A stretch of 64,000 nt of DNA. Origin: Prorocentrum cordatum. Taxonomy: Eukaryota. The stretch is taken from NCBI GenBank assembly GCA_963575745.1, contig CAUYUJ010000318.1:1-64000 (forward strand). Direction: 5' to 3'. The notes under the pieces were generated by a model. That model saw only the letters and a list, made by a program, of their open reading frames with translations, was not told where the DNA came from and ran no database searches. Positions 6,703 to 64,000 of this stretch are shown here, piece after piece; position 1 is the stretch's first letter; each line of letters opens with the position of its first letter. The position numbers were made by a program, and so were the translations under genes.

Positions 6703-6774
6703 GGCCCCAGCTGTCGGAGTTGAAGCCGTTCGAGCTGTCCAACCTTTGCTGGGCCTACGCCAAGCTGTCCTTCG
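6703..6774 (+). CDS. OPR/HPR helical-repeat protein, first detected exon (xPQLSELKPFELSNLCWAYAKLSF-G); gene start not found
   Basis: AG|G acceptor at 6701-6702, GC donor at 6775. PxELSNLxWAYA motif. Joins in phase to 10424. The 5' boundary is less certain (alternative AG at 6649-6650). Confidence 0.8.
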
Positions 6775-19682: not shown

Positions 19683-19708
19683 GATGATGATGATGATGAT
19701 GCTGATGC

Positions 19709-19739
<31 letters not shown>

Positions 19740-19770
19740 AATGATGATGATGAAAATGATGATGATGAAA

Positions 19771-19831
<61 letters not shown>

Positions 19832-19858
19832 CGATGATGATGATGATGATGCTGATGT

Positions 19859-19920
<62 letters not shown>

Positions 19921-19950
19921 CTGATGATGATGATGATGATGATGATGATG
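19683..19950. repeat. (GAT)n microsatellite
   Basis: Direct reading. Confidence 0.97.
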
Positions 19951-21096
19951 AGCAGGAGGAGGACGAGCACGGGGATCAGGACAAGGAATGCAGAGGAAGC
20001 GCCGGTGGAGGTAGGCAATGAGGGCCGATGAGGTGGATGGCGGAGTCGGAGACAGAGCTGGAGGCGGAGGCGGAGGCGGAGGCGGAGGTGGTGTCGGAGG
20101 AGGTTTCTGCAGAGAGTTTGGCGACGGAGGAGGGGTATGTCGGGAGGATGCGTCGAGGCAGCGCAAACGTCGGTTAAGGCGCGCGGATTCGCGACGGGTC
20201 CCGTTCCGATGCGAACTCGACGACCGTTGTCGCAAAGTCAGTTTGCATTGGTTGCATGTCTCGGGGGGTACTTTTCCCGATCCGTTGACCTTTCGCCCAC
20301 GCGCCAAATCCACAGATCCTTTTTCGATGTTGACATGTGGCCGAGTGCAGGATGTGGTTGGTCCGTGGATACGTTGGTCGACTGTGCGTAGGCTTAGCCA
20401 TCGACCTCATCGGGGGTCGCCAGCACGCCCTTGTCGATGCTTGCCGTTTCCGCTGCCCCTGCGGGCCTTTTGTTTGTTCCATGTCCTTTTGCGATGTGTC
20501 TCTCTTAATCGAAGAATCCAGGGCCCAGTCTTGGCCAACATCCTCCTCTCTCCCGCCCCCATCCCTCGCCTCGTTTCCCCCTCTCCGTTATTTCTTCGCA
20601 TGTTCTACCTCCTCATCAGCGTATCCCCTGCGTGTTACTTTTGCCATACCCCTCGCCTCCGTTCTTCGTTCCTTCCGTCCTTTTCCTCATGCTTCTCCGC
20701 TTTAGCCTTCTCCCGCTACTTCCCATGTGCTTTACAGGTATGTATCATTCTAGTATATGTTGCTTCATGTCACATCCTCCTTGGTTATCATCGCTCTCTC
20801 TCTCTCTCTCTCTCTTTTTTTTTCTCTCTCTCTCTCTCTCTCCTGATGTAGCTGTTCCGCTGCGACCGCCCCTCCTTATCCTCCTCTTCTTCTTGCCTGT
20901 GTCGCTGGTCCGCTTCCACCTCCCGTTTTTTTTCTGAAGCTTTCACTCTCTCTCTCTCTCTGTCTCTCCCTCCCGTTTCCCAGCAGCTGTGGCTCGTTGG
21001 AGCGGCGGCAGTCGGTGCAGAGGCCGGGCTGGCCACACTTCGCCCCTCCAAGGGGCTCCTCAGCTGTGGATGTCAAACAATAGCTCTCCCTCCCCT

Positions 21097-25439: not shown

Positions 25440-25760
25440 AAGCATGATGATGAGCGGGAGGAAGATGCGGAGGATGAGGATGATCATGCTGGTGCTGACG
25501 ATGGTGATCGTGATGATCATGGTGCTGATGACGATAGTGATGATGAGGCGGTTTGTGATGATGATGTTGATGATGCTGATGATGATGACGCTGACGCTGA
25601 CGATGAGGACGAGGGTGCAGATGATGATGGTGATGATGATGATGATGATGATGATGACAATGATGCTGCTGCTGATGATGATGATGATGATGATGATGGT
25701 GATGGTGACGATGACAATGATACTGCTGCTGCTGATGATGATGATGATGGTGACGATGAC

Positions 25761-25808
<48 letters not shown>

Positions 25809-26490
25809 ACTGGTTATGGGAATGATGCTACTGATGACGATGGTGATCATGCACATGTGGATAATGATGATACTGCTGGTGATGATGATGACGTCGATGA
25901 TGCTGGTGCTCATGACGCGTATCAGGATGATGTTGATGGCAACGACGACGATTATGGAAATGCTGATGTTGTTGCTGATGATGATGATCATGACGAGCAT
26001 GGTTATGATTTCTGAGATGGTGATCGTGTTGGTGATGGTGATGGCCGCGACGCATACGCTAAAGTCGATGTCGAGGTTGATGATTCCGCTTATGCAGACT
26101 ACCAGACCTGTGTTGTTGATGATTATGGGGGGTATCGATGACGGTTATTGTTGTGTCGCGGTGATGATTATGATGATGATGTTGATGCTGATGTTGATGC
26201 TGATGATGATGATGATGAGGATGATGATGAGGATGATGATGAGGATGCCGCGGTTGCTGCTGCTGCTGCTGCCGCTGACACTGATGTTGACGTTGATGCT
26301 GCTGATGATCATGTTGATGCTGCTAATGATGATGGTGATGACGAGGATGATGATGAGGATCATGATGCTCATGAGGATGACGATGCCAACGACGATGACG
26401 ATGACGATGGCGATGACGACCACGATTATGAGGAGGATGCGGATAATGAATGCTGGAGGTGATGATGAGGAGGATGAGGAGGATGAGGTG
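25440..26490. repeat. degenerate (GAT)n microsatellite, ~1 kb
   Basis: Direct reading. Source of the poly-Met/poly-Ile ORFs in the track. Confidence 0.97.
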
Positions 26491-26691: not shown

Positions 26692-28264
26692 GACGAACCC
26701 CCCCCTGTGCCTCGTCCTCCTGTGCCCGCGCACCCCTAGCGCGGCAGCGCGGTCTCGGGCGTCCTCAAAGGGCAGGGCGCGGAGGGAACGGGTGAGGGGG
26801 GTGGGAGGGGGTGTTGACAGGTGGGGGGGGAATGGGTGGATGGATGGATGGATGGATGGATGGATGGACACGCCGCCAACTGGGCTGCCATGTGGAAGCC
26901 TCGGGCCGGCCGCGGCAGCAAACGATCCACAGAACCGGAGCTGGGAACCGACGGCAACCTTTGCAGTGCCCATCCAGGGGAGGAAGGGAGTTATTGGCCG
27001 GGAGTCGGGGACGATGGGGAGAGGGAGGGAGGGAATGAGGAAGGAAGGAAGAAGGAGGCGGAGGAGGAGGAGGAGGAGGACGGAGGATGGTCCTTCTCCT
27101 CCCCCCTCCCTCCTCGTCACTCGCCCTCTCCCCCCTCCTCCCCCTTGTTCCCCCGCCGCCCCGCGCGCGGGGGGACGGGTAACATTATGCCAAACAACAC
27201 TGCACTCTGTGGCCTCTCCTTCCCCCCTCGAGTGTAGTTATTGCAATCTCGGGAAGGAGGCGACATGAAGCCTGGACAACACATGAGTTGAGACGTCGAA
27301 TCCGCTGACCCTCAGGGGAGCCTAAAACACCGCCATTTGTTGACACGACGGGGGGGTGGGGGAGGGGGAGAAGGAGGAGTTCAGGAAGGGAATTGGGAAC
27401 GCGTGCGCGTCCACGGCGAGTTTACCGGTCTTGTGGTCCCTGGGGCGGTTCAGGGAATTCGCTTTCCCATGGGCTGATAGTCGTGGCGCTAACAATGACC
27501 CGATTTCTGTTTGCCACGGATGCGTGCTACCCAGCTGCATGCGGCAAGTCCTGCCACCGTGCCAGCCCACCATTCTCTCCTCCGATTCGAAGAGCGCGAA
27601 AGCCGCACCGTGTGACACCTCGTATCACGAGGCTTGGGCGAGCCGTAGACTATGGCACGCTCTTCCACGTCGTGTCCAGGTGTCTCTCTTGGTGTTCGTC
27701 GTCGTCGTCTTCATCCTTTCCTCTTCTTCCCTCTTCTGTTGGGAGCCTTTCGGAGGCGTCTTGGGGGCCTCTTGTGGCAACACTGGGCCGTCTTGGAAGC
27801 ATCTTGGGCCACTCTAGCGGTCTTGGTGGCCTGCCTGGGCCGTCTCTGAAGCCAATTTGGGCATCTCGTCTTGGAGAGCGCCAGAGGGCCATCGATGCGC
27901 CCAGGAATTCTCGGGAGAGGAGTATGAGAAGAGGGGGGGAACATGTAGAGCATCGCAGAAGCACTTGGCATTCTAGCACTCCCACGACGAAAAGGGGCCC
28001 CATGACGAGCAGGAAGGGGCCCCATGACGAGCAGGAAGGGGAGTGGAGAGAGTTCGACAGCGAGGTGGAAGGGATGGGCAGCCAGTGAAGAAGCGGAATG
28101 GCCATCCCCCCTGCCTTTTTTTTGCCCTTCCCTCCTGTTCCTCTCTTCTCCCCTCCCTCCCTGCCTCCCTCCCTGCCTCCCTCCCTCCCTCCCTCCCCCC
28201 TCCTCCTCCTTTTCCTCCTCCTCCTCCTCCTCCTCCTCCACCTCCCTTTCCTCCTCCTCCGCAT

Positions 28265-28389
28265 GTTCATCATCTCATAGTCATCATCAGCATCATCATT
28301 ATCACCATCAGTATCATCATCATAGTCATGTTCATCAGCATCAGCAGTATCATCATCATCATCATCATCATCATCAGCAGTATCATCAG

Positions 28390-28434
<45 letters not shown>

Positions 28435-28535
28435 TATCATCATCATCAGTAGCATTACCATTATCATTATCGTCTGCAGCATCGTCAATCTCAGCAGCAT
28501 CAGCATCCAGCATCATCAACAAAAACATCATTATC
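28265..28535. repeat. (CAT)n microsatellite
   Basis: Direct reading. Confidence 0.95.
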
Positions 28536-32414: not shown

Positions 32415-33098
32415 AGGTGATAACGATACCGCAGACGATGACCATGACCATGACCATGACGACGATGACGATGATGGCGATGATGAGAATGGTGATGATG
32501 ATGTTGATTATGGCGATGATGAGAATGATGCTGATGATGACGACGATGATGGTGATGATGATGATGATGGTGATGCTGATGATGATGATGATGCTTCTGA
32601 TGCTGATGCTGATACTGATGCTGATGATGATGCTGTCCTGGTGATCATGATGACAATAATGATGATGATGATGACGATGATGATGATGATGATGAGGATG
32701 GTGGTGGTGATGATGTTTATTTTGATGCTGATGATGATGGGCATGGGGATGAGGATGGGGTTTTTGATGGTGATGATGATGGTGGTGACAACGATTATGA
32801 CGATGGTAATCATGTTGGTGATGATGCTGATGATACTGCCGATGCTGATGGGGATAGGGGATGGGAATGGTGATGATGATGGTGACGATGATGCTGTTAT
32901 TGATGCTGATGATACTGATGGTGAGTGTGATGGTGCTGGTGATGATGATGTTGATGCTGATGATGCTGACGTTGATGATGATTAGTATGGTGATGGTGAT
33001 GGTGATGGTGATGATGCTGATGCTGATGATGATGATGATGATGATGTTCATGATGATGCTGATGATGATGACGACTGTGATGGTGATGGTGATGGTGC

Positions 33099-33153
<55 letters not shown>

Positions 33154-33192
33154 AGTTGTGGTGGTGGTGATGATGATGATGCTGATGATGAT
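32415..33192. repeat. degenerate (GAT)n microsatellite
   Basis: Direct reading. Confidence 0.97.
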
Positions 33193-34833: not shown

Positions 34834-35806
34834 TATGCTTATGCTGGTGCCGTTGGATATGGTAACGGGGATGACGTTGCTGCTGATGATTACGATCATG
34901 ATGATGATCATGACGGTCATGATCATGACGGTCAAGTTGGTGACGTTGATTATGATGAGGATGGTGATGGTGATGAGGATGGTTGTGATGTTTTTGCTGA
35001 TGACTACGAGGAGGAGGGCGAGGAGCAGGAAGAGGACAATGAGGGCGAGGAGGACCATAATATGAAGGAAGGGAAACGCATCAGGAGGAGAAGGGTGAAT
35101 GGGGTAATCATACGGTGGGATCGGAAAGTCTGGGCGGTGTTTTGTTGTTCGACCACGTCCCCGTCAAGCTGGTAGGAACATGGTGTTTTCTACTACGACT
35201 GTGTTGTTTGCTTTCTCTGTTTCTGGACACCCCCATCCAACATCAGTCCCATCTTAGTCGTCATCTCCTTTCTGGTGCGCATTATGTTTTGATGAATCTA
35301 GCCGTGCTATCATGAGACCTCCTGCCTGCGCGGGTGCTCCAGACACGCTTGCACGGAATTCCGCAACTAACAGTTGCGAACATTTTGGGCCGCAGAGGAA
35401 ATCTTCAAATGGTCCGGGTATGCTGACGGCCAAGCGCACTGGTGGCCCAGTCTTCGGAACGCAGCGCCGTGTTAGTGCCGCGCTTGGGTCACAGGGGGAC
35501 AGATGGCTGTTTCACCCCAAGTTGTTTCACACAGCGTTCTTACACCTGGATCGTTTTACGCCACATTCGGGTTGCTTCAGTTCATTCAGCGCCGTTCCAT
35601 CAAGATCAAGCTCGGCTTGTGGGTGCACGCGGCCAGAAACAGTTGTTTTACCTCGGCGGCCCCCGGCCCCGGTGGGGCGCGGCGCCGCGTTCCCATGCAG
35701 CGCGGCGTGCCCGGCCGACCGCCGGACCAAAGACCGCTGGCCGCCACCCAGCGCACCGAGGTCGCGCGCGGCTCGTGCGCGGTGATATTTTCCTGACGGA
35801 CCCCGC

Positions 35807-40560: not shown

Positions 40561-41048
40561 TCGGGCCGGACGAAAGGGGGGGGGATGGGGAGGAGGAGGA
40601 GGAGGAGGAGGAGGAGGAGGAGGAGGAGGAGGAGGACGAGGAGGAGGAGGAAGAGGAAGAGGAGGACGAGGAGGAGGAGGAGGCGGAGGAGGGATGGGGA
40701 AAAGGGGGGGGGTACGAAGTCTGCTGCAGGCAGCTGGTTTCGGCCCCACCGAGGGGCCCATTTAAAACGACGCGAAGATCGGGACAAAATCGGATCGGGA
40801 TAACTCGAAATCTCTGAGAATCGGCGGGTTTGGAGGATGTATTGGGCGCCGCGGCCGCTCCAGAGCGTGCCGGAACGCTCAGATAGCGCTCCGGAACGCT
40901 CTGGAGCGATTTATCCCGATCTTAGCCCTGTTTTACCATTCCTCGATACATGGCCGCCTCTCGGCGCCGGGAGGCGCCAGGAAAATCAGCTGCGTGAGCT
41001 GATTCTCAGACCCCCCCTTTGCTATCTGCCCCCTTTCGCCCGGCCAGA
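40561..41048 (+). mobile_element. TCGGG-terminus MITE copy, expanded by a GAG tract and interrupted by a nested MITE
   Basis: Homologous to 62380-62574 and 62764-62961. Confidence 0.8.
40763..40935 (+). mobile_element. 173-bp TAAAAC MITE nested in the TCGGG MITE, 5-bp TSD CCATT
   Basis: CCATT at 40758-40762 and 40936-40940. The empty site GTCCCATTCCTCGATAC is visible in the copy at about 62461. Confidence 0.92.
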
Positions 41049-42851: not shown

Positions 42852-43005
42852 TCGGGCCGGATGCATGCAGCTGGTTTCGGCCCCACCGAGGGGCACATTC
42901 CTCGATACATGGCCGCCTCCGGCGCCGGGAGGCGACGGGAAAATCAGCTACGTGAGCTGATTCTCAAACCCCCCCTTTGCTATCCCCCCCTTTCGCCCTG
43001 CCCGA
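42852..43005 (+). mobile_element. internally deleted TCGGG MITE copy
   Basis: Shares GCAGCTGGTTTCGGCCCCACCGAGG...GAGCTGATTCTC...CCCTTTCGCCC with the other copies. Confidence 0.8.
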
Positions 43006-43624: not shown

Positions 43625-43661
43625 GAGCTCTCGAACACGGTGTGGTCGTTCGCGACCGTAG
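43625..43661 (+). CDS. OPR/HPR protein exon 7 (ELSNTVWSFATV-G), 37 nt
   Basis: CCAG|GAG acceptor, TAG|GC donor. Confidence 0.9.
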
Positions 43662-44869: not shown

Positions 44870-45840
44870 AGGCGCGCTCGCTGGCGGAGAGGCGCGCGGC
44901 CTTCCAGCACGCCGCGGGCGGCATAGACAGATGAGCCACGCGGCGGCTGCTGGTCAGCGTAGCGCTCGCGCCTGATGCTGCCGGGGCGTTCCGCGCCGTG
45001 CTCTCTGTGGATGTGGTAGCCGAGACTGGCCGCGAAGTGGGGTCAGCCAGCGGTGTGCCCCCACTGCCGCGCGGCGCCAGAGGACCCGGAGTACCGCTGT
45101 GGCAGCGCTCGCGCTAGGAGCCCACTATAAGGCCGCCCCCTTGGGGTTCGCGAGCGGGCACCGCGACGAGGTCCGCGCGAGGCTGCCGCTGGGGACCTCC
45201 CTCACGGGGCTGCCTCAGGACCTGCGGCTGGCGGCGCTCGCGGAACAAACCCGGCTGCCGCTGCCGCTGTTAAACCTGCTTGACTCGTAGAGTTCGCAGG
45301 CCGGCCGCAAGGCGCGTGATTGGACGGACGGAGCTTGCGCGCGCCCGGGCGACCCGGCGCTTGCGAAAGCGGGTTGGGGAGTCTGGTTGGTGGTGGCGGG
45401 CGCAACGGTTTTCGTCGAGCATAGTGGGCCACAGCGGGTGGAACTCACCGCGGCGGTGCGCGCGCGGAGCCTAGCAGGGGGGCTGGTTGACTTCGTCACG
45501 GGCCCCCGGTTCAGCCGCGGCGTGGCGGCCAGTCGCGACGGGGTTAACCCTGCGGAGTGGGCGCACGCAGATTTGTGGGAATGCGCGACCCCGCACTGTC
45601 GCAGCGGTGTCTTGCGCGCGCTGTGGGTGAAGGCGCACTTGGGCGCTGCAGCGGCTCGCGAGCGGGCTGTCTCCCTGGAGGACCATTCTGGTATCGCGGC
45701 CGCGGGCCGCCTGGCGAGCCACGCGGCGGGGGCCCGCTTGCCGGCTCGCGCGCTGTCCTTGGTGCGCTCAAGGGGGCTGCACGCGCTCGCTGCCGTGCAG
45801 CGGGTCATGGCAACCGTGGATTGGCCGTGCTGAAGGCCAT
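44870..45840 (+). mobile_element. 3' fragment of a second LINE family: post-RT zinc finger plus C-terminal RNase H (degenerate)
   Basis: GGIDR*ATRRLL, DAAGAFRAVL, CPHC...EDPEYR, ELTAAVRA, HADLWE, WVKAHL, EDHSGIAAAGRLA (G-N-x-x-A-D-x-L-A). Confidence 0.75.
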
Positions 45841-50509: not shown

Positions 50510-50573
50510 CAAGCGGTGGGAGCTGTCCCCGCAGAACGCCGCCAACATCCTGTGGGCCTACTCGAAGCTCCAG
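50510..50573 (+). CDS. OPR/HPR protein exon 9 (KRWELSPQNAANILWAYSKLQ)
   Basis: CCAG|C acceptor in phase 2 (AG+C = Ser), CAG|GC donor. Confidence 0.87.
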
Positions 50574-50939
50574 GCCTCGCCCCCGGAGGGGCGGGCGGCC
50601 CGCGCCTCGCCCCGGTGCCTCTGAGGGGCAGCTGGCTCCTGAGGTGTTGTTCTCTCCCACCCTACCCCCCCCCCTCTCCTCCTCCTCGCCCCCCCCCTCA
50701 TCCTCCCCCTCTTCTTTTTCTTCTTCTTCTTATTATTATTATTATCATCATCATTTTCTTCTTATCATTATGATTATTCTTCTTCTTCCTCCTCCTCCTC
50801 CTCCTCCTCCTCTTCTGAGGTGCAGCTGACTCCCGAGATGGTGATCTTCCCTCCTCGTCTTCCTCCTTCCCCCCCTCCTCTTCCTCCTCCTCCTCGTCGT
50901 CGTCCTCCTCCTCCTCATCGTCCTCCTCCTCCTCCTTAT

Positions 50940-52400
50940 CCACCCCTTGAGCATCGGCGCTGGCATATCCCTGATCAAAACCTGCTTAATGTTGTCCGAT
51001 ATTGCCCAATCCGGCTTCATCCCGATCAGTTCGGCTGAATCGCAGGCCGAATTGGGCCTCACCCAGCTCATTGGCCCCTTGATCGGGCGCCGCAGCTTCT
51101 GACAATTGTCCCACGAAGACCTCCAAGGAGTTGCTTCCTGAACTCTCCTGGAGCGAGCCACTGGATACTCACCGGGCGTGTTCCACTACTCGCAAAGTGC
51201 CTACTCGCAAACGTCAGATAAAAAAAACGCGCTCGCCTCGACCAAATTTCTCGTAAATCTTCTTCGGCGGAGCCAGGCCACTTGCGAGTAGCTACTCTGC
51301 GAGTCGTGGAACGCGCCTTTCTAGATACGCCCCCTGGCTCCGGCCACCAGCCCGGCGCGAACGGGGGGCACGAGCGGGCTCCGCAGCAGGCGCCCTCGTT
51401 TTTCTCTTGCCCACCGGGCGGGGCTGGGTGCCTAGAGGTTGACACCAACACCGATATCGGCGGTGTGCCTCCACCGAGGAAAGAAGATCCCGATCTCGGC
51501 GGCGGTGGTAATGCTCTGGCTTCCAAGGTGGCCGAGCTATTACCACCGACACCGAAATCTAGGATCATCTTCCACGTGTGGAGGCAACCCCCTGTGTTGG
51601 TGTTGGTGCCCATTTCCAGGCCTCCGAGGGTGGGAGCCTTCTGGAGGGAATGTGCACGATGATCATGACCAAGATGCCGCGGGTTTTTGTCGACGCTTGT
51701 CTTGGTCACAGCCCACGCCATGCCGCAGTGATGGCGCTGAGATAGGGGTCCGCTTGGATCCGGACTGGCCCCGCTTGTTCCTCAGGCCTGCCTGCGTCTG
51801 TTCCCCCGGCGCTACTCGCGCACCTGGGAAGCCGTAAGACGGCACCCCATGTGCACCCACATCCTTTTGGGTACAAACTTGCACGCGCGCACGCAACTCC
51901 ACAGAGGCGCCCACACTTTGCCTTCCACGTGAGACGTCCTCAACAAATGACATGCAGAAGAGGTGCGCTCCCATCAACTATCCGTCTCGCTTGAGACACG
52001 TTCCCGTTGTACGATGCCCTTCATAAAGATTGGGGCTCTCGCTTCAGACAGCCTTCGAACATTGAGTTCAACGCAGCTTTCCATTGGTGCCGTATCTCAG
52101 CAATCAGGCTCTCGCTGCAGACATCCTCAATTCACAATATGTTGAACCTGCAATGTTCTGTTGCATGCTGGCTATGCTCGTTGAGGGTCCCCAAGACGGG
52201 ACAACACAGACAGCCATTGCAACACGCATGTTGAAGACACGTTCGCGGTTGCCGCGTGAATGGGCAAGGCTACCATTGGCCCAGTAACAATTTGTCCAGA
52301 ACAGGCGTCAACGTGACGTCGGCAAACCATTCAGGTAAGTTACGAACAATTCGTATCGCTCCATCGTCTCCCCTCGAGTCGCCGCGTGGATATCCACGTG
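50940..52400 (-). mobile_element. possible heavily decayed LINE RT/post-RT fragment
   Basis: Weak motifs only: SFVEDV, TADIGVG, IKGP...LIG. Confidence 0.25.
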
Positions 52401-54044
52401 GCAATCGCAGGCAGCCGCTTAATGTCAGAACCCGAACAGCAAGAGAACATAATGTAAGAATTCTTCACACTAGCGAGGGCAGTATGCGCAATATTCGCTA
52501 ACAAATGCCAGAATAATAAGACACTGCGGTGAAGTCAACCTGTTTAGGCATTGTATTTGAATCGGGAGACAGCGTCCCGTAGTTCGCAGCCACGCCTGGA
52601 ACACACATCAGCAACAGCCTACGACAAACGCGCGTGCAGTAGGAGGCGATGTTAATCGATTTACCTACAAGTGGGGTCCTTGGGAAGGTCACGAACGCAG
52701 TCTGGAAAGTATACGGAGACGCTTTTCGGTCCGCGGTGTTCGAATCAGTACCCGTCGGTCGTGGAAAGTAGGTACTTCCGGATTTCCAGATCCCAACATA
52801 CTTTCAGCGCCTTCCTTTTTCATGGTGGGTTCACCTACTTCTTCCGACCGATGTGCAATGTTCTCAGCCCGAAGGGCTGTTTTGGGGCCTCGGGGACGGC
52901 AATGGAGGTATTCCGGATAGTATGGCGGGGGGGGGGGCCAGGTTTCGCCGGGTCCTGGGACACTTTCCTGCGCAGCCCGAGGGCTGCTCTGGGGGGCCCA
53001 GGGCGCCTTGCAGGCCGTGTGGGTACTCTGGCCCACGGGGGCACTCCCGAGAGTCCGTGGGCTCCACGGCGCCCCCGAGAAGCTGCATCCTCGCCCCGCA
53101 GGGCCAGAACGCCACGGCAGCTCCAACCGAGGAACACCACAAATGCATTAACATACGCCCTGGGGTCCGCTCGGATCTGTTCTGCCAGTGTATGGTTTGA
53201 CTCCTACATCCAGCCGCCTGCCTGATATGCTGGTGCGCGCCAGGTCTGTCCACGGCTTCCAACGTTCGCTGCAGCGCCTTGCCAAGGATGCTGCCGTGCC
53301 TGGCAGCCATGATTGGTTTCGAAGTATCCGCCTGGGCTGACGCCACCGAGAGAGTTCATGAATCGTGCTTTTTATATAATGCATTGAGGGCTTGTCGCAG
53401 AACAACATGAATTGCCATACATGCTACCCCCTTGGTCGGCGATGCACCCCCTTACCGAGACTCCTGCTGGCGCCTCCAGCGCCACACCTTGTGCCCTCCG
53501 CGCGCCGGGAAAGACATTGAAAGGGGGGCCACGGGTTGTCTCAAGACATGTGCGCGTACCTCCCACAGCTAACTATCCCAGCCCTCCTGTGTTGGATTCT
53601 CGTGGTGAACAGAACTGCCTTCGGTCTCCAACCGTTCTTCCCGCCTGTATGTCTCCTTCCTTCATTCTGCCTCCTCCTCCATCGCCCTCCTGCCTACTAC
53701 CTCCGTCCTGCCTTCTACGTTCCTCCATGTCCAGCTGCCTCGGGCAATTCCGCCACCCTGCTAGCGCAGCGTCCTGAGTGGCGAGGTCGTGAAAAGGCAC
53801 GGCGCGGGGCACCTCACGGCGTGTTTCGGTTCGTTCGTGTGCCGCAATATTTCCCACGGCCTTCGCTGTCCAGCACCCGCGTGCGTTCCGGCCGCCGCGC
53901 GCCTCTTCCGACTCGCTCCTGCGAGGGGAGGAAGGGGCCTGTTGGACACTTTGCCTCGGGTGCTTCGTCTAGGCTTTCGCTTGTTTAATACGGTGAGCCC
54001 GCCTTTTGCTTGAGAAGGCTCGCGCGCTCCACGGTGAATGATTG

Positions 54045-54640
54045 CGAAGGCCTTACGGCCGGTGCCGCCGACCCTGAATGGCGACGACGACGACGACGAC
54101 GAGCGCTTTTGGGGGCCTCTTGGGGGTAGTTTGTGGGCCTCTTGGGAAGCTCTTAGGGGCCGCTTGGAAGCCTCGTGGGGGCCTCTTGGGGCTTCCTGGG
54201 GGTCTTTTGGAGGGGGCCCGGGACGTCTTGGAGGCGTCTTGGACGGTCTTGGGGCTATCTTGGGCGTTTTCGGCCGATCTTTGGGCGACTCGGGGCCCTC
54301 TTGGGCCGTCTCGGGGGCCATCTTGGGCATTCGGACCTCATTTGGAGTGTTTTCGAAGTTTCTAGGCCGCCCCGAATCTGCGGGGCCCCGCCCCGCACCC
54401 CCCCCAGCACCCCCCCGGCCACCCCCCCCCTCCACCCCCCTGGGACCCCCCCCCCCTGGGGAAAGGGATCGAAGGGAAGGGGCTTCCCTTCGACTCGATT
54501 ACGACACTGCTAGATTTTTCTCTCGCGCACGAGCTTGAGAATGAAACTGCAAGGAAAGGGGACGACGGAGGCGACGACCGACGGAAACGACGACTCGAAC
54601 AGCCAAGCCCCTCGCGCACGCCGACAGGGTCGGCGGATCC
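54045..54640 (+). repeat. 10-11-bp periodic array element with head GGCCGGTGCCGCCGA and hairpin tail
   Basis: The head also occurs at about 30683. Tail CGCCGAC-AGG-GTCGGCG-GAT at 54619-54638. Confidence 0.8.
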
Positions 54641-57307
54641 ACTGATGCTCCAACACCCCTCGACCCAGACTCGGATTGATTTTGAGAACCGAGGTACTTG
54701 CGAGCTTCGGTGTTCGGCGAGCCGGTGGCCTCTGCGATGTCTCGCGCATCGCGAGGTCTGAAGTCGCGACCCCATGGTTCCATTCGGCTGAGTGTTAAAA
54801 TCTCGTTCGCGCGCGCGGGGGCCTGACGCGACTCGCGCGCGCTGTCGTCGCGCATCTTGCGCGCGCCGGCATTTCGGCCTGCCGCGGCCATTGCTGTTCG
54901 CGCCCCTCGGTTCGAAGGCGCGCCCGCGGCCGCTCGCGCGGGCGCCCCGTCGCCGCGGATCGCGCGCGCGTTTGTTGCCGCCCCGCGGCAGCGCGGCAGA
55001 GAAGCAGGCGCAAAGCGCAGCGCCGACAATGCCGCAGCGACGATTGCACCAACATGTGTCCAGCAACAACATCGCGGTCCGAACCACCGCAACCATTGCG
55101 ACATAGCAGCATTCCCCACGACATGCGCACCATCATCAGCACTGCGCCACCCCATCTCCAGATCGCGATATGGAACGATTCGAGACGGGCCAGACATGCC
55201 GACGCACGTTTGCGTTCTCTTCGCTCCCAGTGCATGTCGACGGCCAGATTCCACCGCGAAGCAACAGAGAAGTAATAGTGCGTCGCAGACAGTAAAAGCA
55301 ACATGCCTCGATGCAGGGCGGAATGGGAGCAGGGGGGGCACATCGGGCAGGTTCCGCCGCCCCGCCGACCCCCGAGGAAACGCTCGACAGACTGCGCGCG
55401 AAACCCAGCGTCGTAGATCGCCCAGGGCCCTCGGGCCCCGACCGACGGTCGACGCTTGAGCCTGCGATCGTGGTGTTCGAAGCAGGTCCGAGTCACCATG
55501 AAATTCAGCTCTCAGCCGGGATTTCCGCGGCATCAGTGGTGGATGAGCACTGCCAGAGAGGAGGGCGGCCAGACCTGGCGCGAGCTCTGCAGCAATGCCA
55601 CAGCAGATCTTCGCGGGAGGATGCAGTCGGCGAGAGTCAGGGGGGCCGACCGCCCTCCCGAAGCGCGCCCGACGAATTCCGCTACAGCCCCAGAAGTGGG
55701 CACAGTGCGTGGCGGTTCCTTGATAGTATGTCCAAAGTGCGATACGGTTGCCCCGCGCACGCGCGCCCGTGCGCGGGGGACACGAGTTGAGACAAGCAGC
55801 GTTTCTGCAACTCTTCCGCGCGCTCAAAGGCGTGGTTCGTTGGTGTTTCGCGCGTCCTTCGGCCCCCTTGTCGCCAGATGTCGTGGAAGAGCCCCGCTGC
55901 GACGCCCTGCCCCTCTCCCCGGCTTTCTCGGCCCGACGACGGCCTCGAGGAGCGCGGGCGAAGCTGGCGCGAGAGGCGAGGCGACGACAGACGAAGCCAG
56001 CGACCACATCGCTTCCACCCATCTTCGGTGCCGAGCTCCGCGGGCCCAGCGCCGGTTCAAGAGGCCCCTTGTGCGAAAGCCCAGTGGGATGTGCAGCTCG
56101 GGAGTAAGCCGGCGCCTCGGTCGTCGAGGCGAATTCGCGGCCGCGGTCATCGCGCTCTGGAGTTGCAAACGCAGGCATCGCAACAGCGAGTTCCCCGACC
56201 ATCGCCATCCCGAAGCAATTCAGTTCACGCGAGGACAGACGCATCTAGAGCAATATTCCCGCGGTGCTCCGGCCCAACAGAGCCCTCTCGCGGCGCTGCA
56301 GCGTTCGCGTCGCTGACTGCTGGAGGCGCTCGCCACGGCGAAAACCCGCCGTTCTCAATGAGTCGATTCAGCAGCAGAGCCTGCGCGAGAGGCCAGGGTC
56401 AACGGCCTGTTTCCGGAAGACGCCACCGCATCCACGGCCGTCAAAAAGTTGGTCCCCATTGTGGCTCTTCTCGATCGGCGCGCGGCGGCCGTTGGGGGCC
56501 CGGGCTTCGTTCGCGCGCGCTGTCAAAGATGGCGCAGCAAGGAGTCATGCGGAGCAGCTGCGCACCTCGTTGAACAAAAACGAGGAAAAGCGGCGGGTGG
56601 CCGAGCGCGCGAAAGCCGAGGACGAGGATATGTCCAACGCGAAGCTTGTCCCGCGCACCCCAGGCGGAGGTCTGCGTTCCGTTGCGCGCGAGGCCATGGT
56701 CGAGCAGTTGGCCCGCGCGTTGGACGGGAAGCTGCCGGAGGCCGACAAGAAGCTCATCGACTTCGCCAGGGGCTGGGAGATCTATCCGATCGACCAGCAG
56801 GCGCCCCGCGCCAAGCCGAGGCGCCCGCGCGGCAGGCGGGGCGCCCTGGGGCGCGGACTCTCACGCTGCTGGAGGAGAGGGCCCCAGAGTTTGCGAAGGC
56901 CTGGCGAGTTGCCAACGCGATCGCGCGCGAGTTCTTGTCCTTCGCCATTCAGCACGCCATGGGCGGCCGCTTACTCGCGCGGTGACTTGAGCCAGGCGCG
57001 CCGCCAGGGGCGACGGCGACGAGCTGGAGGGCGATGTGCCTCGCCTGCGAAGGCCCGGAAGTGTCGGGCGCTGAGTTGCCGAGCCCGAGACCCGCTCGGG
57101 GGCTGCCGGGCCCCCTGCCCAGGCCCCCTCGGCGACCGCCAGCGTTGTGAACGGCGCCCGCCCCAGCCGTGCGTCTCCGATGCTACCTTGGTGGGAGCTC
57201 CGCCCACTGGGCAGATGGACTTCGTCTGCGGCGGCGCGCGTGGGAAGTCGGCGCTCGACGCTGCGTCGGCAGTGAGTCTCGCCCCAGGGGTGTTCGCGGG
57301 GTCGCGC

Positions 57308-57738
57308 GAGGTGCAGAGACAGGAGATCAAGGTGCCGAAGGTGCCGCTCTATCTGTCTGACGCGGTCGGCCCGGGCGAGATTGCCTCCGAGGAATTGAAG
57401 GTGGCCGCGGGGGCCCACGGGAGATTCAGAAGACGATCGCCGTCGTGGGCGACGACGGAAGCGGGGCCGTCGGGCGCGAGGAATTTGTCGGGACGAGCGC
57501 GCGCAAGGTTTTGAACCGCGACCTCGAGGACGAAATGTCGACAGCTTTCAGGCTCCTCGGCGATGGCGAGACTGTGCAAGATATCGTTAAATAGTCTGAA
57601 AGCGCGGCGAAAGAGCTGGGCGAACGGATGGTGGGTGAGGAGTTGTAGGAGATGGTTGACGAGGCCGACTAGGGCGGCGACGGGGAGGCGAACGAGGGGG
57701 AGCTTCTCCGAATCATGCAGAAGACACCTTTGGTTTGA
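57308..57738 (+). pseudogene. processed (intronless) centrin/caltractin pseudogene
   Basis: EVQRQEIK...[91 protein letters not shown]. These are the four EF-hand regions of centrin, with stops, frameshifts and a deletion. Confidence 0.9.
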
Positions 57739-59764
57739 GCTCGTCCGAACCATCGCATTCTCGCTCTCCCCCACATCCCCCAAAACACGATTTCGGGGAA
57801 ACCGTCGCCACAGCGTGCTGGGCCACCAGCGCGGCTGCAGTTTCTCACTTGTGCAATGGCGATCAACATGTGGATTGGAGGCCCTCCAGGGCCCCCGCGC
57901 ATTTTTTAAGTTATTTCGAAGTGCGGACCAAGTTGCACGCGGTGCCGTTCTACCGACCGCCAGTGAAGAACAACGTCAACAAACACACATCCAACATTGC
58001 CCAAAAGGGCTCCGAAGAGGATTGCCAAAACGACCCCACGAGGCCAATCGCATCGCTTTTCTGTAGTACTGTTGCGACTTGATGCGCGTTCGCGAATTCG
58101 GGACTCCGATCTTCCACGACAGTTCAAGAAGCCCACAGTCGCGCCCCAAGCCTGCCCAAGAGGCTTTCAAGAGGGCCCCAGGATCACCCAAGAGGCCGCC
58201 ACGACAGCCCAAGGACCGCCAATATGGTCCAAAAGGCGGCCAGACGACCGAAATAAGGAACTCAGAAAGAGGGCCCGAAAGGATATGTTGAACCTCCCCC
58301 CCCAGGATGGCCACAAGAGGCCTGCCGAGGCATACCCAGAAACCCGTAGAAGCCTTGAACGGCTCCCATGAGGCCCGCAAGACGCCACCAGGCCCCCCCC
58401 CAAAAAACCCAAGTCGACCCCCAAGTGGAACCCTTGAAGCAAAAACCATCAATCCCCGCTTGTTCCTTGCAAGGATGTCAGCAGTCCCGCCTCAGCTTCC
58501 AACGTGGCAAAGCAGCCCAGGATGCCCCCAAAGTCGGTCCAGAACGGCCCGACGTGCCTTCAATAATCCCACGACTGCCAACAAATCGCCCCGAGTCGGC
58601 CCACAGGCCCCCAAGACGGCCGTAACAGCCTCCCATACAGCCCGACGACTTCGAAGAGCACCAAGAGGCATTCACACATTGCAAGACCGCCGGGTTCGCT
58701 TCCAAGCCGACCCAGGAGTAGCCAAAGAAGCCCAGCGACGTTCCGCACGCCCACGCCTGAGTACACATTGTCGACTTCTTTCCGTGAGGGCTTGCACCGG
58801 GCCCCGGGGCGCGCCAAGATGGCCCCAAATTGCCCCCAGCACGGCCCACGGGGCCAACGAAAACGTACCCAGTCTCGAGTCCTAAATCATGATTTGGATA
58901 TCCGTTCATGGCATGGGCGATTTGACTGAATTTCGACATTGAAGTCATTTGTTTTTTTTAAATCGGGTCTGCATGTGGATCGCATTTGGCATTATTTCCT
59001 CATGCTCCTCCTCGCTCTTCCTGTTCCTTCTTCCCACATGATTATCGTCTCCCTTGCGAAGTGGCGAACCCGGTCCAAATCCGATCCCCCATGTGCTCCA
59101 AACCAAGTCCAAAATAGGACAGCGCGGGGGGACCACGTAAGCTCCCACGGAACGGACAGCAAATCATTGAAACACATTCTTCACCGAGTGATCGACCTCT
59201 ACGTTTTGGTCTCGCCGCCGCGCCATTATGGCTGCGTCTACTCGCTGGTACCCACCGGGATTTTTCTGACGCCACCAGGAATGGGTCTACAGGTTCTTTT
59301 CGCCCTTCTGAGCTTCCGCCCGTTTGCTGCACATGTCTTGCTTTTCCAGTTTTCCGCTTTCCGCTGCCTAGTCGTGGCCCAGCTTGAGTTTGGACGCCTT
59401 TTGACCCGCTTCACGAGGCCGTTGACCAAAAAGTATCCCCAACAGCCCCTTCAGAAACTTTGTCCACGAGATCTGACGGGAAAAAGAGACGAAGAGGCCC
59501 ATATAGTGAAATAGGGGGGCAACCTGGTTGAACAGAGAGATCTCTGTGAGCAAGGGGATGACCTTGGGATGGCCTTTTCGGGCCGTCCCTAGGGCCCGCG
59601 TGCGGGCGAGGGAGGTAGGGTGAGGAGAAGGAGGAGGAGTATGAGGAGGAGAAGGAGAAGGAGGAAGACGACGACGACCACGACGACGAGGAAGAGAAAA
59701 AGGACAAGGAAAAGGAAGACGACGATGACAATGACGAGGACAGCGAGGACGAGCTCAGAGCCCT

Positions 59765-60260
59765 CCAAATCGCTTCTTGGAGCCCTCCTGGGAATCTTTG
59801 GGGGGATCTTGGGGTCGCCTTGGGGCCCTCTTGAGGCCTTCTTGGGGCCCTCTTGAAGTCCGTTGGGGGAGCCCTTGAGGGCCTCTTGAGGCCACTCTTG
59901 AGGCCATCGGTCAAGAGAGGGTGGGGGCTTCGATTTGCCTTACCCCCCTGGGACCGGTCTTCGATTTGCCTTCCTCCCGGGACCATCAAACTCGCCGCTT
60001 GTGGCCTTCTTGGGGCGCTCTTGGGCCGTTCCTGGGCGCTCTTGGAACCGTTTTGTTGGCCTCTTGAGGCTCTCCTGGGCAAGTATGAAACAATCTCGAG
60101 GCCTCAACAGCGCATTCGAAGCGAAAATGCGAAAAGGCAGCAATCAGTGTTTTTGTTGCTTTTGAAGGATGTGGGTCTCTTGCGGGGGGGTCCTGAGGGG
60201 ATTCCGGGAGCCCTTAGAACTGTCTTGTGGCCCTCGTCGGGCCTTTTGGAGGTATGTCTA
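59765..60260 (+). repeat. 10-11-bp periodic array
   Basis: TCTTG periodicity following a GAG/GAC tract. Confidence 0.8.
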
Positions 60261-60411
60261 GGCTGGGGCTGCGGCTCCAGTGCCGCCCTTGCTGTTGCGG
60301 TTTTGGGGCTGCCACGGGAGGATTGTGGAGTGAGAACCCCAGCCGAGGCATACTTAAAGGCCACGCTGCCATGGGAGGATAGTGAAATGAGGGCCCAGAC
60401 CAAGGCATACC

Positions 60412-60431
60412 AAGAGTAAGTAAGGCTTCGG
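60412..60431 (+). repeat. left 20-bp target-site duplication of the retrocopy
   Basis: AAGAGTAAGTAAGGCTTCGG, identical to 62302-62321. Confidence 0.95.
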
Positions 60432-60453
60432 TCCGTAGCCATTTTGGCTCAAG
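60432..60453 (+). other. genomic copy of the full 22-nt dinoflagellate spliced leader (DinoSL relic)
   Basis: TCCGTAGCCATTTTGGCTCAAG is an exact match to DCCGTAGCCATTTTGGCTCAAG. It lies 95 nt upstream of the ATG. Confidence 0.97.
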
Positions 60454-60548
60454 GCATCATCTCGAGCTTTTTCGGGTTTTAGCAAGTACATTCCAAACAA
60501 TTTGTTGTTGCTGTCGCAAGCTTCCACCGCTCACCGCGACCTTGCAGC

Positions 60549-61598
60549 ATGGATTTCGCGACAGATCTCCGTAACTACATCGGCACGTTGGGCGGCTGCC
60601 TGGTGGTTGTGCTGTCGCTGGCAGCGGTGACGGGGGCAGTCTGCGAGCTCATCAACATTCGCGTGATGAAGGTTGTCGAGAAGATGCCGTGGTGGCCAAG
60701 TGCACAGCCTCTGCAGAAAGGATTAATGATGAATTTCGGGTTCGCAGAAGATACCTGCACTCCAGAGATGATGCTGGAGAGCTTCTCATTCGTTCTCCTT
60801 ATTTGCGGGCATCACTTCCTGATGGGCATGGCAATGGTTCCCGTCGTCGTCCGTGGGTGGTCAGGGGCAGGCCCGACTGGGCAGCTGCTCTTCCTGATGG
60901 CAGCTCTCGGTGACGTATCTTTTGACGTCTACGACACGATCAAGAAGTTCTTGCTCACGTTCTTCCCGAGCACGTTCAAGAGCTGGGGTACGTGCCCGCT
61001 GCCGTTCTTTATCATCATGTGCCTCCTGCACCATCCGCTGGCCATGCTGCTTGTGATCCCCATGAACATGAAATACAGCTATATGCCCGAGTATCACAAG
61101 ATTGCATGTTCGCTGCTCCTGGCAGCGGGCATCTGCTTCCTGTCTGGCCAGTACAAGTTTACCCTCGACGTGAAGAGCAAGCGCGAGTTCCTGCAGTACA
61201 AGGCGATCGTGCTGGTGCAGTTCGTGACCATCTGGTACACCAGGTGCCTCGTCTGGTTCCCGCAGCTCTACTACGCCCTCTCGTACTTCCGCGCGCAGGG
61301 CGACACGCATTTCCTCGTCGGCGGCTGTGTTGCCGGCGGCCTCATGTCCCTGTTCAACGTCATCATGCTTCTGGATTCCACCACGGCTGCCCTCAAGTGG
61401 CTCCCGAGACCGCTGCCAGACACCGAGGAGACGCGGGAAGAGCTCCAGGCCGACCTCATCCGCCAGCAGGGCGACCTCGTCGCGCCCGGGGCGCCGGCCG
61501 TGCTCGGCAAGGCTGCGAAGACGATGCGTACGACGGTGAAGGTCGCGGTGGCCGCACAGCGCTTCAAGGCACCCCTTCTCGCCAAGAAGGGTAAGTGA
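60549..61598 (+). CDS. intronless retrogene: 349-aa multi-pass membrane protein, TLC (TRAM/LAG1/CLN8) domain-like
   Basis: Intact ORF with strong GC3 bias and several hydrophobic helices. Motifs FDVYD, LLHHPL, YTR and SLFN are in TLC-like order. Confidence 0.88.
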   Translation: MDFATDLRNYIGTLGGCLVVVLSLAAVTGAVCELINIRVMKVVEKMPWWPSAQPLQKGLMMNFGFAEDTCTPEMMLESFSFVLLICGHHFLMGMAMVPVVVRGWSGAGPTGQLLFLMAALGDVSFDVYDTIKKFLLTFFPSTFKSWGTCPLPFFIIMCLLHHPLAMLLVIPMNMKYSYMPEYHKIACSLLLAAGICFLSGQYKFTLDVKSKREFLQYKAIVLVQFVTIWYTRCLVWFPQLYYALSYFRAQGDTHFLVGGCVAGGLMSLFNVIMLLDSTTAALKWLPRPLPDTEETREELQADLIRQQGDLVAPGAPAVLGKAAKTMRTTVKVAVAAQRFKAPLLAKKGK

Positions 61599-61624
61599 GC
61601 GACCACGGGGGCTCCGTGCCATAC

Positions 61625-61650
61625 GTCCGTCATCGTCATCATCATCTTGG

Positions 61651-61704
<54 letters not shown>
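61625..61704. repeat. (CAT)n tract in the retrogene 3' UTR, between 31/34-bp direct repeats
   Basis: AGTGAGCGACCACGGGGGCTCCGTGCCATAC (61594-61624) recurs at 61705-61738 with 3 extra nt. Confidence 0.9.
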
Positions 61705-61705
<1 letters not shown>

Positions 61706-62294
61706 GTGAGCGACCACGGGGGGCTCTCCGTGCCATACCTCCCCGTCTTCCGAATATGCGTGCCAAGCATCGCCTCCGGCGCGCCCGCGCATCGGGTTCC
61801 GCACCTGCTCCTCCTCGGAGCTGGCCCCAGCGAGCATGTTCCCATGCCGTCCTTGCCGCTTGGAGCGAGGCGACTGCTCCGCTCTGGTAGGCCTGGCAGG
61901 ACACGAGTATTGTCCCTCTGCTGCTGCTGCTACTGCTGCTGCTGCTGCTGCTGGTCCCCCCTACTGCCGCTCCCGCCTCTCTCCTGCTTCTCTTTCTGCC
62001 TTCTGCGCCAGACCGGCAGTAGCCTCAGGGCTGTTGCACCGACTTGACGAAGAAGTAGAAAAAATACCTGGCAGGCGCCGCGGCGACAGTAATAGACAGA
62101 GCTTCGGCGAAGTGGAGCTGAAATGAGTAGGGCGCTGGCCACGTGTAGCACGCGGTCAGACTAAGTACCTCAGTATACCTTCCCCCGACCACCCCTCCCC
62201 CGACTCCCCACCCACCTATCCGAATATTCAGGTGCCGCTCACCCTCGACTCCCACCGCGATCGACCTCTGCGCGGGGCAACGTCGCGACCGAAT

Positions 62295-62321
62295 AAAAAA
62301 AAAGAGTAAGTAAGGCTTCGG
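62295..62321 (+). repeat. poly(A) remnant (A9, 62295-62303) overlapping the right 20-bp TSD (62302-62321)
   Basis: ...GAATAAAAAAAAAGAGTAAGTAAGGCTTCGG. Confidence 0.93.
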
Positions 62322-62379
62322 GCTGCGCTCAGATGGCCCCCCCGCGTGGACCCAGCTGGCCTCAGCAGGCGCCCTAGGA

Positions 62380-62574
62380 TCGGGCCGGACGAAAGGGGGG
62401 GATTGGGAAAGGGGGGGGTACGAAATGTGCTGCATGCAGCTGGTCTCGGCCCCGCCGAGGGTCCCATTCCTCGATACATGGCCGCCTCCGGCGCCGGGAG
62501 GCGCCGGGAAAATCAGCGAATGTGAGCTGATTCTCCAGGCCCCCTTTGCTGTCCCCCCCTTTCGCCCGACCCGA
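62380..62574 (+). mobile_element. 195-bp TCGGG MITE
   Basis: TIR TCGGG(C/T)CGG(A/G)CGAAAGGGGG at both ends. Confidence 0.85.
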
Positions 62575-62763
62575 CAGGCAGCCCCGGCCAGTCCCAGCAG
62601 GCCTCCCCGAGCGAGAGGTCCCTCGGCGGTCCCTGGCGCCCCGGCGGCGCCTCCGGCGGGTGCCTCGCGAGGGCTCCGCGCCCCGGGGCCCGAGCCGCGG
62701 CGAGGGCCCCGGGGGCCTGGGGCGAGCGCACGAAGCTCTGCGCGAGATTGCCGCCGTGGTGTC

Positions 62764-62961
62764 TCGGGTCGGGCGAGAGGGGGGGGGGGTTGGGCAAGGG
62801 GGGGTACGAGGTCTGCTGCACGTAGCTGGTCTCGGCCCCACCGCGGGGCCCGCTCTTCGATGCATGGCCGCCTCCGGCGCCGGGAGGCGCCGGGAAAGTC
62901 AGCTACGAGTGAGCTGATTCTCACCCCCCCCTTTGCTATCCCCCCCTTTCGCCTGACCCGA
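62764..62961 (+). mobile_element. 198-bp TCGGG MITE with 5-bp TSD GTGTC
   Basis: GTGTC at 62759-62763 and 62962-62966, with a ~20-bp TIR. Confidence 0.9.
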
Positions 62962-63271
62962 GTGTCTTGTTTCGCGACGCGGGCATGGCTGGGGTTGCTC
63001 CCCGCTTCGCGAGGCGTGCCGGACGCGTGGCCGTTCCTCGTGCTCCCAGGGTCTGAGCGACTTCTCTCCACCTGAGTTGCGGAGAGCAGGCCAGACACAG
63101 AGAGGGACGTCCAGGTAAACCGACGTAGCTCCAGATGCATCGAGGCAGATCCAAAGACCTCCAGGGAGGTCCAAAGACCTCCACAAATCGGGGACGCTCC
63201 AGCGCGAGTCGAGGGACAGCCGACGTCGCTTCGCCCCGAGCGAGCGTGGTCGCGTGGCGCCCCGCGGGTAG

Positions 63272-63324
63272 GTCGGCGAGCAGAGCGGGCGGCTGGTGGA
63301 GGAGCTGCTCGGCGTGTCCATCTG
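63272..63324 (+). CDS. probable OPR/HPR protein exon 10 (VGEQSGRLVEELLGVSI...)
   Basis: TAG|GTC acceptor in the required phase 0, GC3-rich codons, and an amphipathic second-helix pattern. The GA donor at 63325 is tentative. No downstream exon is available to confirm it. Confidence 0.5.
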
Positions 63325-63349
63325 GAGCTGCTCCGGGGGCGGGGGGGCC

Positions 63350-63729
63350 TCCGGTGCGGAGGTCCGGGCCCCTCCCCTTCTCGTCCCCTCTCCTCGCTCC
63401 CTGCATCCTTCCTCCCTCCCTCCCTCCCTTCTCGGCCTTCCCTCAGAGCGTGAATTACCTACCCCGCTTTCGCTTCCAGGCAAAACCAAGCCATACCACG
63501 CGCCCCCTCGTCAAGCAGCCTGACCAGTACAGGCTTCAATTTGGCATCGTTTGGTATCTCTTGGAAGCGAGGGTGGTCAAAAGCGAGGTAGGTTTGTTTT
63601 CCCCCTATTCCCTCCTCGGCCTTTCCTCCTCGGCCTCCCTCCTCGGGCTTCCGGTGCGGAGGTCCGGGCCCCTCCCCTTCTCGTCCCCTCTCCTCGCTCC
63701 CTGCATCCTCCCTCCCTCCCTCCCTCCCT
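63350..63729. repeat. ~80-bp direct repeats (63350-63429, 63650-63729) flanking ~220 bp of other sequence
   Basis: TCCGGTGCGGAGGTCCGGGCCCCTCCCCTTCTCG...CCCTCCCT occurs twice, near-identical. Confidence 0.9.
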
Positions 63730-64000
63730 CCCTCCCCCCTCGGCCTGCCCTCCCGCCTCCTCCCGCCTCCTCCGTCCTCCCCCTCCTCGCCCCTCCTCGT
63801 GCCGTCTTCCTCCCTTGGTATGGAAGAGAGCCCATTTCCAGAGTCTGGCAGGCCACTGTGGCCTTTTTTCCAGCGCCTCGCCTCACAGCATCGGGCCGGG
63901 CACACCAGAGAGCGTCTGTTGTGTGCTGATTGGGAGGCCCCCTCGCCCACTTCGTGGTGCCCGCCGCCCGACGGAGAGGGCAGGGAAGGAGGTTGGTCTC

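Follow-up and report, generated by a model that had tools for sequence, protein, structure and literature searches.

The question raised by this locus is how a copy of a spliced messenger RNA (mRNA) came to lie in the genome of the dinoflagellate Prorocentrum cordatum, and by which machinery it was put there. The sequence analysed (the window) comprises 64,000 nt of contig CAUYUJ010000318.1 (assembly GCA_963575745.1), and all coordinates refer to its + strand. The element under study is a processed retrocopy of an mRNA that had received the trans-spliced leader (SL) of dinoflagellates (DinoSL), and it stands between the two copies of a target-site duplication (TSD). It is quite probable that this insert is a very recent, full-length retrocopy of the mRNA for a protein of predicted TLC fold, placed there, most likely, by target-primed reverse transcription of the type used by long interspersed nuclear elements (LINEs) acting in trans. 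Leader-tagged retrogenes number in the thousands in dinoflagellate genomes and make up about 22-23% of the genes in two Symbiodiniaceae (PMC6050394).

As the earlier note on this DNA had stated, and as direct reading of the letters proved correct to the base, the same 20-mer, AAGAGTAAGTAAGGCTTCGG, directly adjoins a perfect 22-nt DinoSL, TCCGTAGCCATTTTGGCTCAAG, on one side and an A-tract on the other (Table 1). The 20-mer had only these two matches in the window when up to three mismatches were allowed, so that it is not, within the window, the frequent motif of a local repeat that the earlier note had feared; two matches were reached in 0 of 100 dinucleotide shuffles. The 21-nt core of the DinoSL was matched once in the window, again with up to three mismatches, and the complete leader agrees with the full 22-nt DinoSL as printed in PMC5585692. 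This leader (DCCGTAGCCATTTTGGCTCAAG) is encoded in the DNA 95 nt upstream of the ATG, the feature by which DinoSL-tagged retrogenes are recognised. An SL RNA gene was ruled out as a reading of it, as the leader is followed by GC, by the 95-nt untranslated region (UTR) and by an open reading frame (ORF), with no GT intron.

Between the TSD copies lie 1,870 nt, for which a 5'UTR of 95 nt, an intronless ORF of 349 aa and a 3'UTR of about 700 nt had been announced and 95 nt, 349 aa and 696 nt were found. No second copy of the insert or of its left flank exists in the window, microsatellite matches aside. Both junctions are clean: no bases were lost or added at the leader, the other end is formed by the A-run, and a perfect 20-bp duplication surrounds both. 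The right 20-mer opens with AA, which are at the same time the last two A of the 9-A run, and an untemplated G derived from the cap, matching the flank by chance, would account equally well for the final G of the 20-mer. Because the boundaries fall exactly at the first base of the SL and at the A-run, within a perfect 20-bp duplication, the insert is a full-length retrocopy, reverse-transcribed up to the first SL base as had been proposed.

The same boundaries bear on the idea that an older retrogene was moved or duplicated at the DNA level, by a DNA transposon or by segmental duplication, with no fresh reverse transcription. The family does include several near-identical copies or alleles, visible as a mosaic of seven residues among its transcripts, which would suit such an event, but the repeats match the ends of an mRNA to the base (SL base 1 and the A-run), no extra flanking sequence was brought along, and 20 bp exceeds the duplications of known DNA transposons. 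Neither terminal inverted repeats nor long terminal repeats (LTRs) were visible at the ends of the insert by direct reading. A move at the DNA level is therefore highly improbable.

The presence of a matching mRNA was followed in public sequencing runs. Words were sampled from a 3-kb stretch including the flanks of the insert, and of 24 runs the best contained a share of 0.51 of them; four runs from four studies (X1, X4, X6 and X16) were compared with positions 58500-64000. All four behaved as RNA, with depth only at 60463-62253 and at some repeats to the right, and with zero depth on 58500-60339. As contigs from these runs match the insert whereas the flank is silent, the insert has the shape of an mRNA. 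Three contigs of X1 match 60485-61589, 61719-61909 and 61883-62253 with 0 differences over a total of 1,667 nt, and an X16 contig begins at 60463, ten bases 3' of the leader. From this coverage, at least 86 of the 95 bases of the 5'UTR, the entire coding region and most of the 3'UTR exist in mRNA in this exact form. The contigs cannot distinguish between this locus and an identical parent as the source of the matching mRNA. A paralogous variant with four base differences is carried by X6.

This identity, total over the compared bases, and the lack of DNA reads covering the junctions are what one would expect if a complementary DNA (cDNA) or transcript read had been wrongly built into the genome assembly. 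A contaminating cDNA, however, would not duplicate 20 flanking bp at SL base 1 and past the A-run, and the DNA to either side is intronic and unexpressed, with an RNA depth of zero, so there is very little chance that the insert is an assembly artefact.

The retrocopy is young, because its TSD (20/20), its SL (22/22) and all 25 residues that are invariant in the protein family have been kept, and because the RNA contigs show no difference over the 1,667 nt compared. In this respect too the earlier note, which had called the insertion young, was supported.

Table 1. Features of the retrocopy and of its host gene, in window coordinates.
Feature	Position	Strand	Basis or remark
Left TSD copy	60412-60431	+	exact 20-mer AAGAGTAAGTAAGGCTTCGG
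Full 22-nt DinoSL, TCCGTAGCCATTTTGGCTCAAG	60432-60453	+	perfect 22/22; directly adjoins left TSD copy
5'UTR of copied mRNA, 95 nt	60454-60548	+	direct reading; RNA contigs from 60463 (X16) and 60485 (X1, X4), 0 differences
Intronless ORF, 349 aa, ATG to TGA	60549-61598	+	ORF translation
3'UTR of copied mRNA, 696 nt	61599-62294	+	RNA contigs over 61719-61909 and 61883-62253, 0 differences
(CAT)25 microsatellite in 3'UTR	61630-61705	+	imperfect 35-38-bp direct repeat at 61594-61628 and 61705-61742
Putative remnant poly(A), 7 unambiguous A	62295-62301	+	whole A-run is 62295-62303 (9 A)
Right TSD copy	62302-62321	+	exact 20-mer AAGAGTAAGTAAGGCTTCGG
Host exon, about 64 nt, encodes KRWELSPQNAANILWAYSKLQ, then GC donor	50510-50573	+	X4 contig; 5' edge placed by eye
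Host intron, 12,698 nt, GC..AG	50574-63271	+	X4 contig joins 50573 to 63272
Next host exon, about 55 nt, then GC donor	63272-63326	+	X4 contig ends; reading frame continues helical-repeat motif

Relatives of the ORF were also available for comparison. At E <= 0.001, 38 of them were found with 41-100% identity, nearly all on contigs of the size of transcripts (0.9-1.5 kb). A single one of them, P0002, is an annotated genomic protein; it is also from Prorocentrum cordatum, shares about 98% identity with the window ORF and lies on a contig of 31,870 bp, shorter than the window, and therefore at a different locus. In P0002 the residues Y178 and M179 are separated by 111 additional residues, and this stretch is missing from the window copy and from all seven transcript-derived proteins of the 90% cluster. 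One transcript protein, P0041, is the same as P0002 at 7 of 7 variable positions and has no such stretch, as expected if the extra residues of P0002 were the translation of an intron that is removed by splicing but was taken as coding by the gene caller. As P0002 is interrupted and the window copy is not, the latter is the uninterrupted, mRNA-like form, and, judged from the protein sequences, it lacks an intron that its paralog appears to have.

The earlier note had asked for an intron-containing parent. A paralog with an intervening stretch of 111 codons does exist, whereas the true parent was not found: P0002 is not the direct parent, since the variable residues of the window copy form another combination (T68, S78, S277, E294, L303, G308, K321) and its C-terminus is KKGK instead of KKSTGK. 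The transcripts show a mosaic of the seven variable residues, so that the family has several near-identical copies or alleles. Among the gene models searched, no longer one contains the ORF, and the shorter ones gave 10 matches, none from the annotated P. cordatum proteome; the window copy seems to be unannotated in that collection. When public metagenomes were scanned with the cargo protein, 89 pattern matches were obtained, of which 0 were confirmed.

The microsatellite of the 3'UTR lies close to the end of the coding region, and the direct repeat around it (61594-61742) takes in the region of the stop codon. The KKGK (349-aa) and KKSTGK (351-aa) forms of the protein diverge right at the edge of the (CAT)25 block. 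One X4 RNA contig (record 17) passes from 61593 to 61719 by way of only 19 letters where the window has 125, and thus represents a variant without this block that fits the KKSTGK form.

How the cDNA would have been inserted can be proposed from the two junctions. A mature, SL-trans-spliced and polyadenylated mRNA would have been reverse-transcribed over its full length, up to the first base of the 22-nt leader, by a LINE-encoded protein acting in trans and coming from outside the window. The first nick would have been made on the bottom strand at 5'-...CTCTT|GG-3', where the terminal T residues could anneal to the poly(A) tail and serve as the primer for cDNA synthesis. A second nick on the top strand, 20 bp away, would then have closed the insertion, and fill-in of the 20-bp stagger would have produced the duplication of AAGAGTAAGTAAGGCTTCGG. 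In this scheme the A-run is taken as the tail of the copied mRNA, an identification that we infer from its place at the 3' end. The geometry of target-primed reverse transcription is established for L1-type elements, as cited in PMC5585692 and PMC12014239, and a 20-bp TSD together with an A-tail fits the LINE type of this process. For dinoflagellates, LINEs were presumed to be the source of reverse transcriptase (RT) and endonuclease, with direct evidence lacking (Song et al. 2017, PMC5585692), and both LTR and non-LTR elements were left open as the machinery (Haro et al. 2025, PMC12014239).

The earlier note had gone further and implicated LINE machinery with an endonuclease of the apurinic/apyrimidinic (APE) type. 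The part of this claim that concerns target-primed reverse transcription fits the TSD and the A-tail, whereas the footprint does not identify the class of the endonuclease, and the attribution to an APE-type LINE is a reasonable guess, plausible but unproven.

Several observations weigh against an insertion by LINE-type target-primed reverse transcription of a complete mRNA. The A-run is short and preceded by GAAT, and it may be partly template-encoded; the RNA contigs end at 62253, 41 nt before it, and no contig from the four RNA runs spans the leader, the A-run or either junction. The target, CC|AAGAG, has only two A in common with TT|AAAA, the target site of L1-type elements. An RT or endonuclease domain was found in 0 of 325 stop-to-stop ORFs of at least 110 aa in the window, a search that frameshifted remnants escape; of these ORFs, the 121 of at least 180 aa were searched at E <= 0.01, and two further sets of 102 ORFs each at E <= 0.001 and at E <= 0.0001. 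The intervening stretch of P0002 is known at the protein level only, with its splice sites unseen. Leader-abutting duplications were not in excess over controls among environmental DinoSL sites, but this does not count as evidence against the reading, the set being uninformative because 36 of its 133 sites are followed by GT (likely SL RNA genes) and because it has many short and AT-rich contigs.

That set came from public metagenome contigs, in which the 21-nt DinoSL core was found at 126 loci, with 133 distinct sites. Of 113 testable sites, 6 had a repeat of at least 10 nt whose end lay 0-3 nt ahead of the leader and which was found again downstream; in a control shifted by 25 nt the number was 12 of 113. 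When an A-run was also required (k = 8), 5 of 63 sites were positive, compared with 5, 9 and 6 of 63 in three shifted controls, and the five matching sites are all on contigs with a GC content of 17-29%. Perfect cores of the DinoSL are present in AT-rich environmental contigs of this range (L002, L018, L046 and L061-L063; GC 17-29%), a composition atypical for dinoflagellate nuclear DNA. Some of these contigs carry two or three cores, and in L061 there are three, spaced 1,200 and 687 nt apart.

Since none of the 325 ORFs searched in the window has an RT or endonuclease domain, the machinery, if of LINE type, would have acted in trans from elsewhere. The same lack of LINE coding sequence, together with the short A-tail and a target that is not L1-like, could also be explained by capture of the cDNA at a staggered double-strand break that was already there, or by its synthesis with a non-LINE RT (LTR, Penelope-like or other), without a LINE endonuclease; LTR elements are left open as the source of RT in PMC5585692 and PMC12014239. 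However, the clean 20-bp duplication, with no bases lost or added, is typical of two staggered nicks, whereas endonuclease-independent insertions usually come with deletions and without duplications. An LTR integrase, for its part, makes duplications of 4-6 bp and needs LTR ends, and the insert has no such ends. We therefore regard break capture or a non-LINE RT as unlikely, and LINE-type target-primed reverse transcription is retained as the preferred reading.

The sole retroelement-like hint in the window is a weak RNase H match at 45291-45830 (+), with E 9.7e-4 and 19.8 bits against a cut-off of 25.8. It may represent a decayed retroelement in the host gene.

The protein encoded by the insert was analysed by its predicted structure. 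Searches of its sequence gave little: no Pfam family was matched at E <= 1, including PF03798 (TRAM/LAG1/CLN8), and a sequence-profile search against solved structures returned two chance-level matches only (E 0.5 and 1.3). A structure model built from an alignment of 32 sequences had a mean predicted local distance difference test score (pLDDT) of 88.5 and a predicted template modelling score (pTM) of 0.82. With this model, Foldseek ranked ceramide synthases at the top, if weakly (best E 0.059). In an exhaustive structural comparison, human CerS6 was reached with Z 18.7 (240 residues, root-mean-square deviation (rmsd) 3.3 A), a yeast ceramide synthase with Z 18.1 and Lac1 with Z 17.2, and the next families, TMEM120A (Z 11.9) and ELOVL7 (Z 9.7), came far below. 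In a language-model atlas the score was 0.90 for a cluster of 88 members, 10% of which carry PF03798, and we take this as a lead only. In the family alignment 25 residues are invariant, including the pair H161-H162, and all of them are kept in the window copy. From the model, the cargo is predicted to be a divergent multi-pass membrane protein with a TLC fold like that of ceramide synthases, from a family of dinoflagellate proteins, and its function is likewise a prediction. The likeness to ceramide synthases (CerS6, 8qz6; yeast Lag1/Lac1, 8qtr and 8izd) lies in the fold, over 229-240 residues with Z 17.2-18.7 and rmsd 2.8-3.3 A, whereas the identity is 12-14% and the cargo has no PF03798 match; the invariant HH pair of the family alignment may be a further likeness.

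The surroundings of the insert were read with the help of an X4 contig. A 58-nt piece of this contig lies on 63270-63327 with foreign letters at both sides, and the 30 letters that precede it are those of window positions 50542-50571, exact and unique. With the usual AG ambiguity, this places a splice join between an exon that ends in ...CTCCAG at 50573, with GC after it, and an exon at 63272-63326 with AG before it. The joined translation reads KRWELSPQNAANILWAYSKLQ-VGEQSGRLVEELLGVSIW and is presumably shaped like heptatricopeptide or FAST-like helical repeats; exons with a similar motif lie on the + strand at 43628-43660 and 6735-6767. From this one contig of one run we infer that the host, a helical-repeat gene, is expressed and has an intron of 12.7 kb, and that the retrocopy stands 9.8 kb from the start of this intron, in the same orientation as the gene. 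The small exons that had been described for the host gene, of 36-83 nt, could be verified in part: where seen, the exons measure about 38 to 64 nt, with about 64 and 55 nt for the two around the insert.

The duplicated target holds GTAAGT, a consensus-like splice donor (60415-60420 and 62305-62310). As this motif lies inside the TSD, a potential donor was doubled within the host intron.

Such a position suggests a way in which the copy could be expressed. The copy might be a working nested gene: it would be transcribed within the pre-mRNA of the host and set free when an SL is trans-spliced onto it anew, and the matching RNA contigs would then come from this locus. This possibility arises because the copy is in sense orientation in the intron of a transcribed host and because an AG acceptor lies inside the encoded leader. 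The RNA contigs start at 60463 or later, 3' of the place where a new leader followed by the relic CCATTTTGGCTCAAG would stand, and we consider a working nested gene possible but rather doubtful. If it were one, a sense-oriented landing in an intron would make retrocopies expressible on arrival, with no need of a promoter. In any case, sense orientation within the intron of an expressed host offers a concrete and testable route to such expression.

The value of the locus for the mechanism is modest, and lies in base-level evidence on how dinoflagellate retrocopies insert. A fresh copy that keeps both junctions makes the geometry of the event visible, that is, a staggered cut of 20 bp, priming on an A-tail and cDNA synthesis to the first base of the leader. 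This geometry is the signature expected of a LINE-type insertion, although a single locus cannot settle the enzyme. If the proposed mechanism is true, the locus would give base-level evidence that gene recycling in dinoflagellates uses LINE-type target-primed reverse transcription.

Several repeats lie around the insertion. A segment of 165 nt at 63443-63607 folds on both strands into a single long hairpin (z -4.0 for + and -4.8 for -) and is located between near-identical CT-rich blocks (about 63340-63440 and about 63650-63740). All four runs contain RNA contigs that agree with it but for several mismatches, and these contigs are very abundant, with a summed word depth of up to thousands. It had no Rfam match, and the whole window gave 0 Rfam matches at the gathering score; the segment is probably a dispersed hairpin repeat. 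Another palindromic repeat, made of a G-run and a C-run, is present in copies of 83-94% at 62380-62520, 62762-62962, 40688-40762 and 42862-42931, the first of them 60 bp to the right of the insertion. This repeat is abundant in X6 RNA contigs (depth 416), reached 32 bits with plant MIR hairpin precursors, far under the gathering score of 168, and looks like a hairpin element similar to miniature inverted-repeat transposable elements (MITEs). Long (CAT)n/(ATG)n tracts, presumably within host introns, occupy 19680-20000, 25510-26410, 28260-28490, 32460-33190 and 34870-34970.

Retrogenes with DinoSL relics were reportedly described by Slamovits and Keeling in 2008 as the "recycled processed cDNAs" of dinoflagellates. 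In the accessible text of PMC5585692, PMC6050394 and PMC12014239, and of the review PMC11453091, terms for target-site duplications are absent. The genome paper of P. cordatum (PMC10666404) deals with leader-bearing transcripts and, in the part seen, has the word "retroposition" once, in a cited title (Song et al. 2017). Full-text searches of the literature, supplements and subscription papers (including that of 2008) aside, brought up no description of DinoSL retrocopies flanked by duplications.

Leader-tagged retrogenes are thus a textbook feature of dinoflagellates, of which the window copy is an unusually pristine example; what is new here is the predicted TLC-fold cargo and the sense orientation in a 12.7-kb GC..AG host intron. 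Like the DinoSL-relic retrogenes of PMC5585692, PMC6050394 and PMC12014239, it has an encoded leader in front of a coding sequence that lacks introns and stems from a trans-spliced mRNA. Their leaders are worn or truncated, whereas that of the window copy is intact (22/22) and both ends of the insert are kept, with a 20-bp TSD and an A-tail. With the processed pseudogenes and retrogenes made by L1 in mammals (PMC5585692, PMC12014239) it shares the absence of the paralog's intervening stretch, a putative A-tail at the 3' end, a duplication within their range of 7-20 bp and an insertion away from the scaffold of the paralog. It differs from them in its tail of 7-9 A, in a target of CC|AAGAG instead of TT|AAAA and in the trans-spliced leader at its 5' end.

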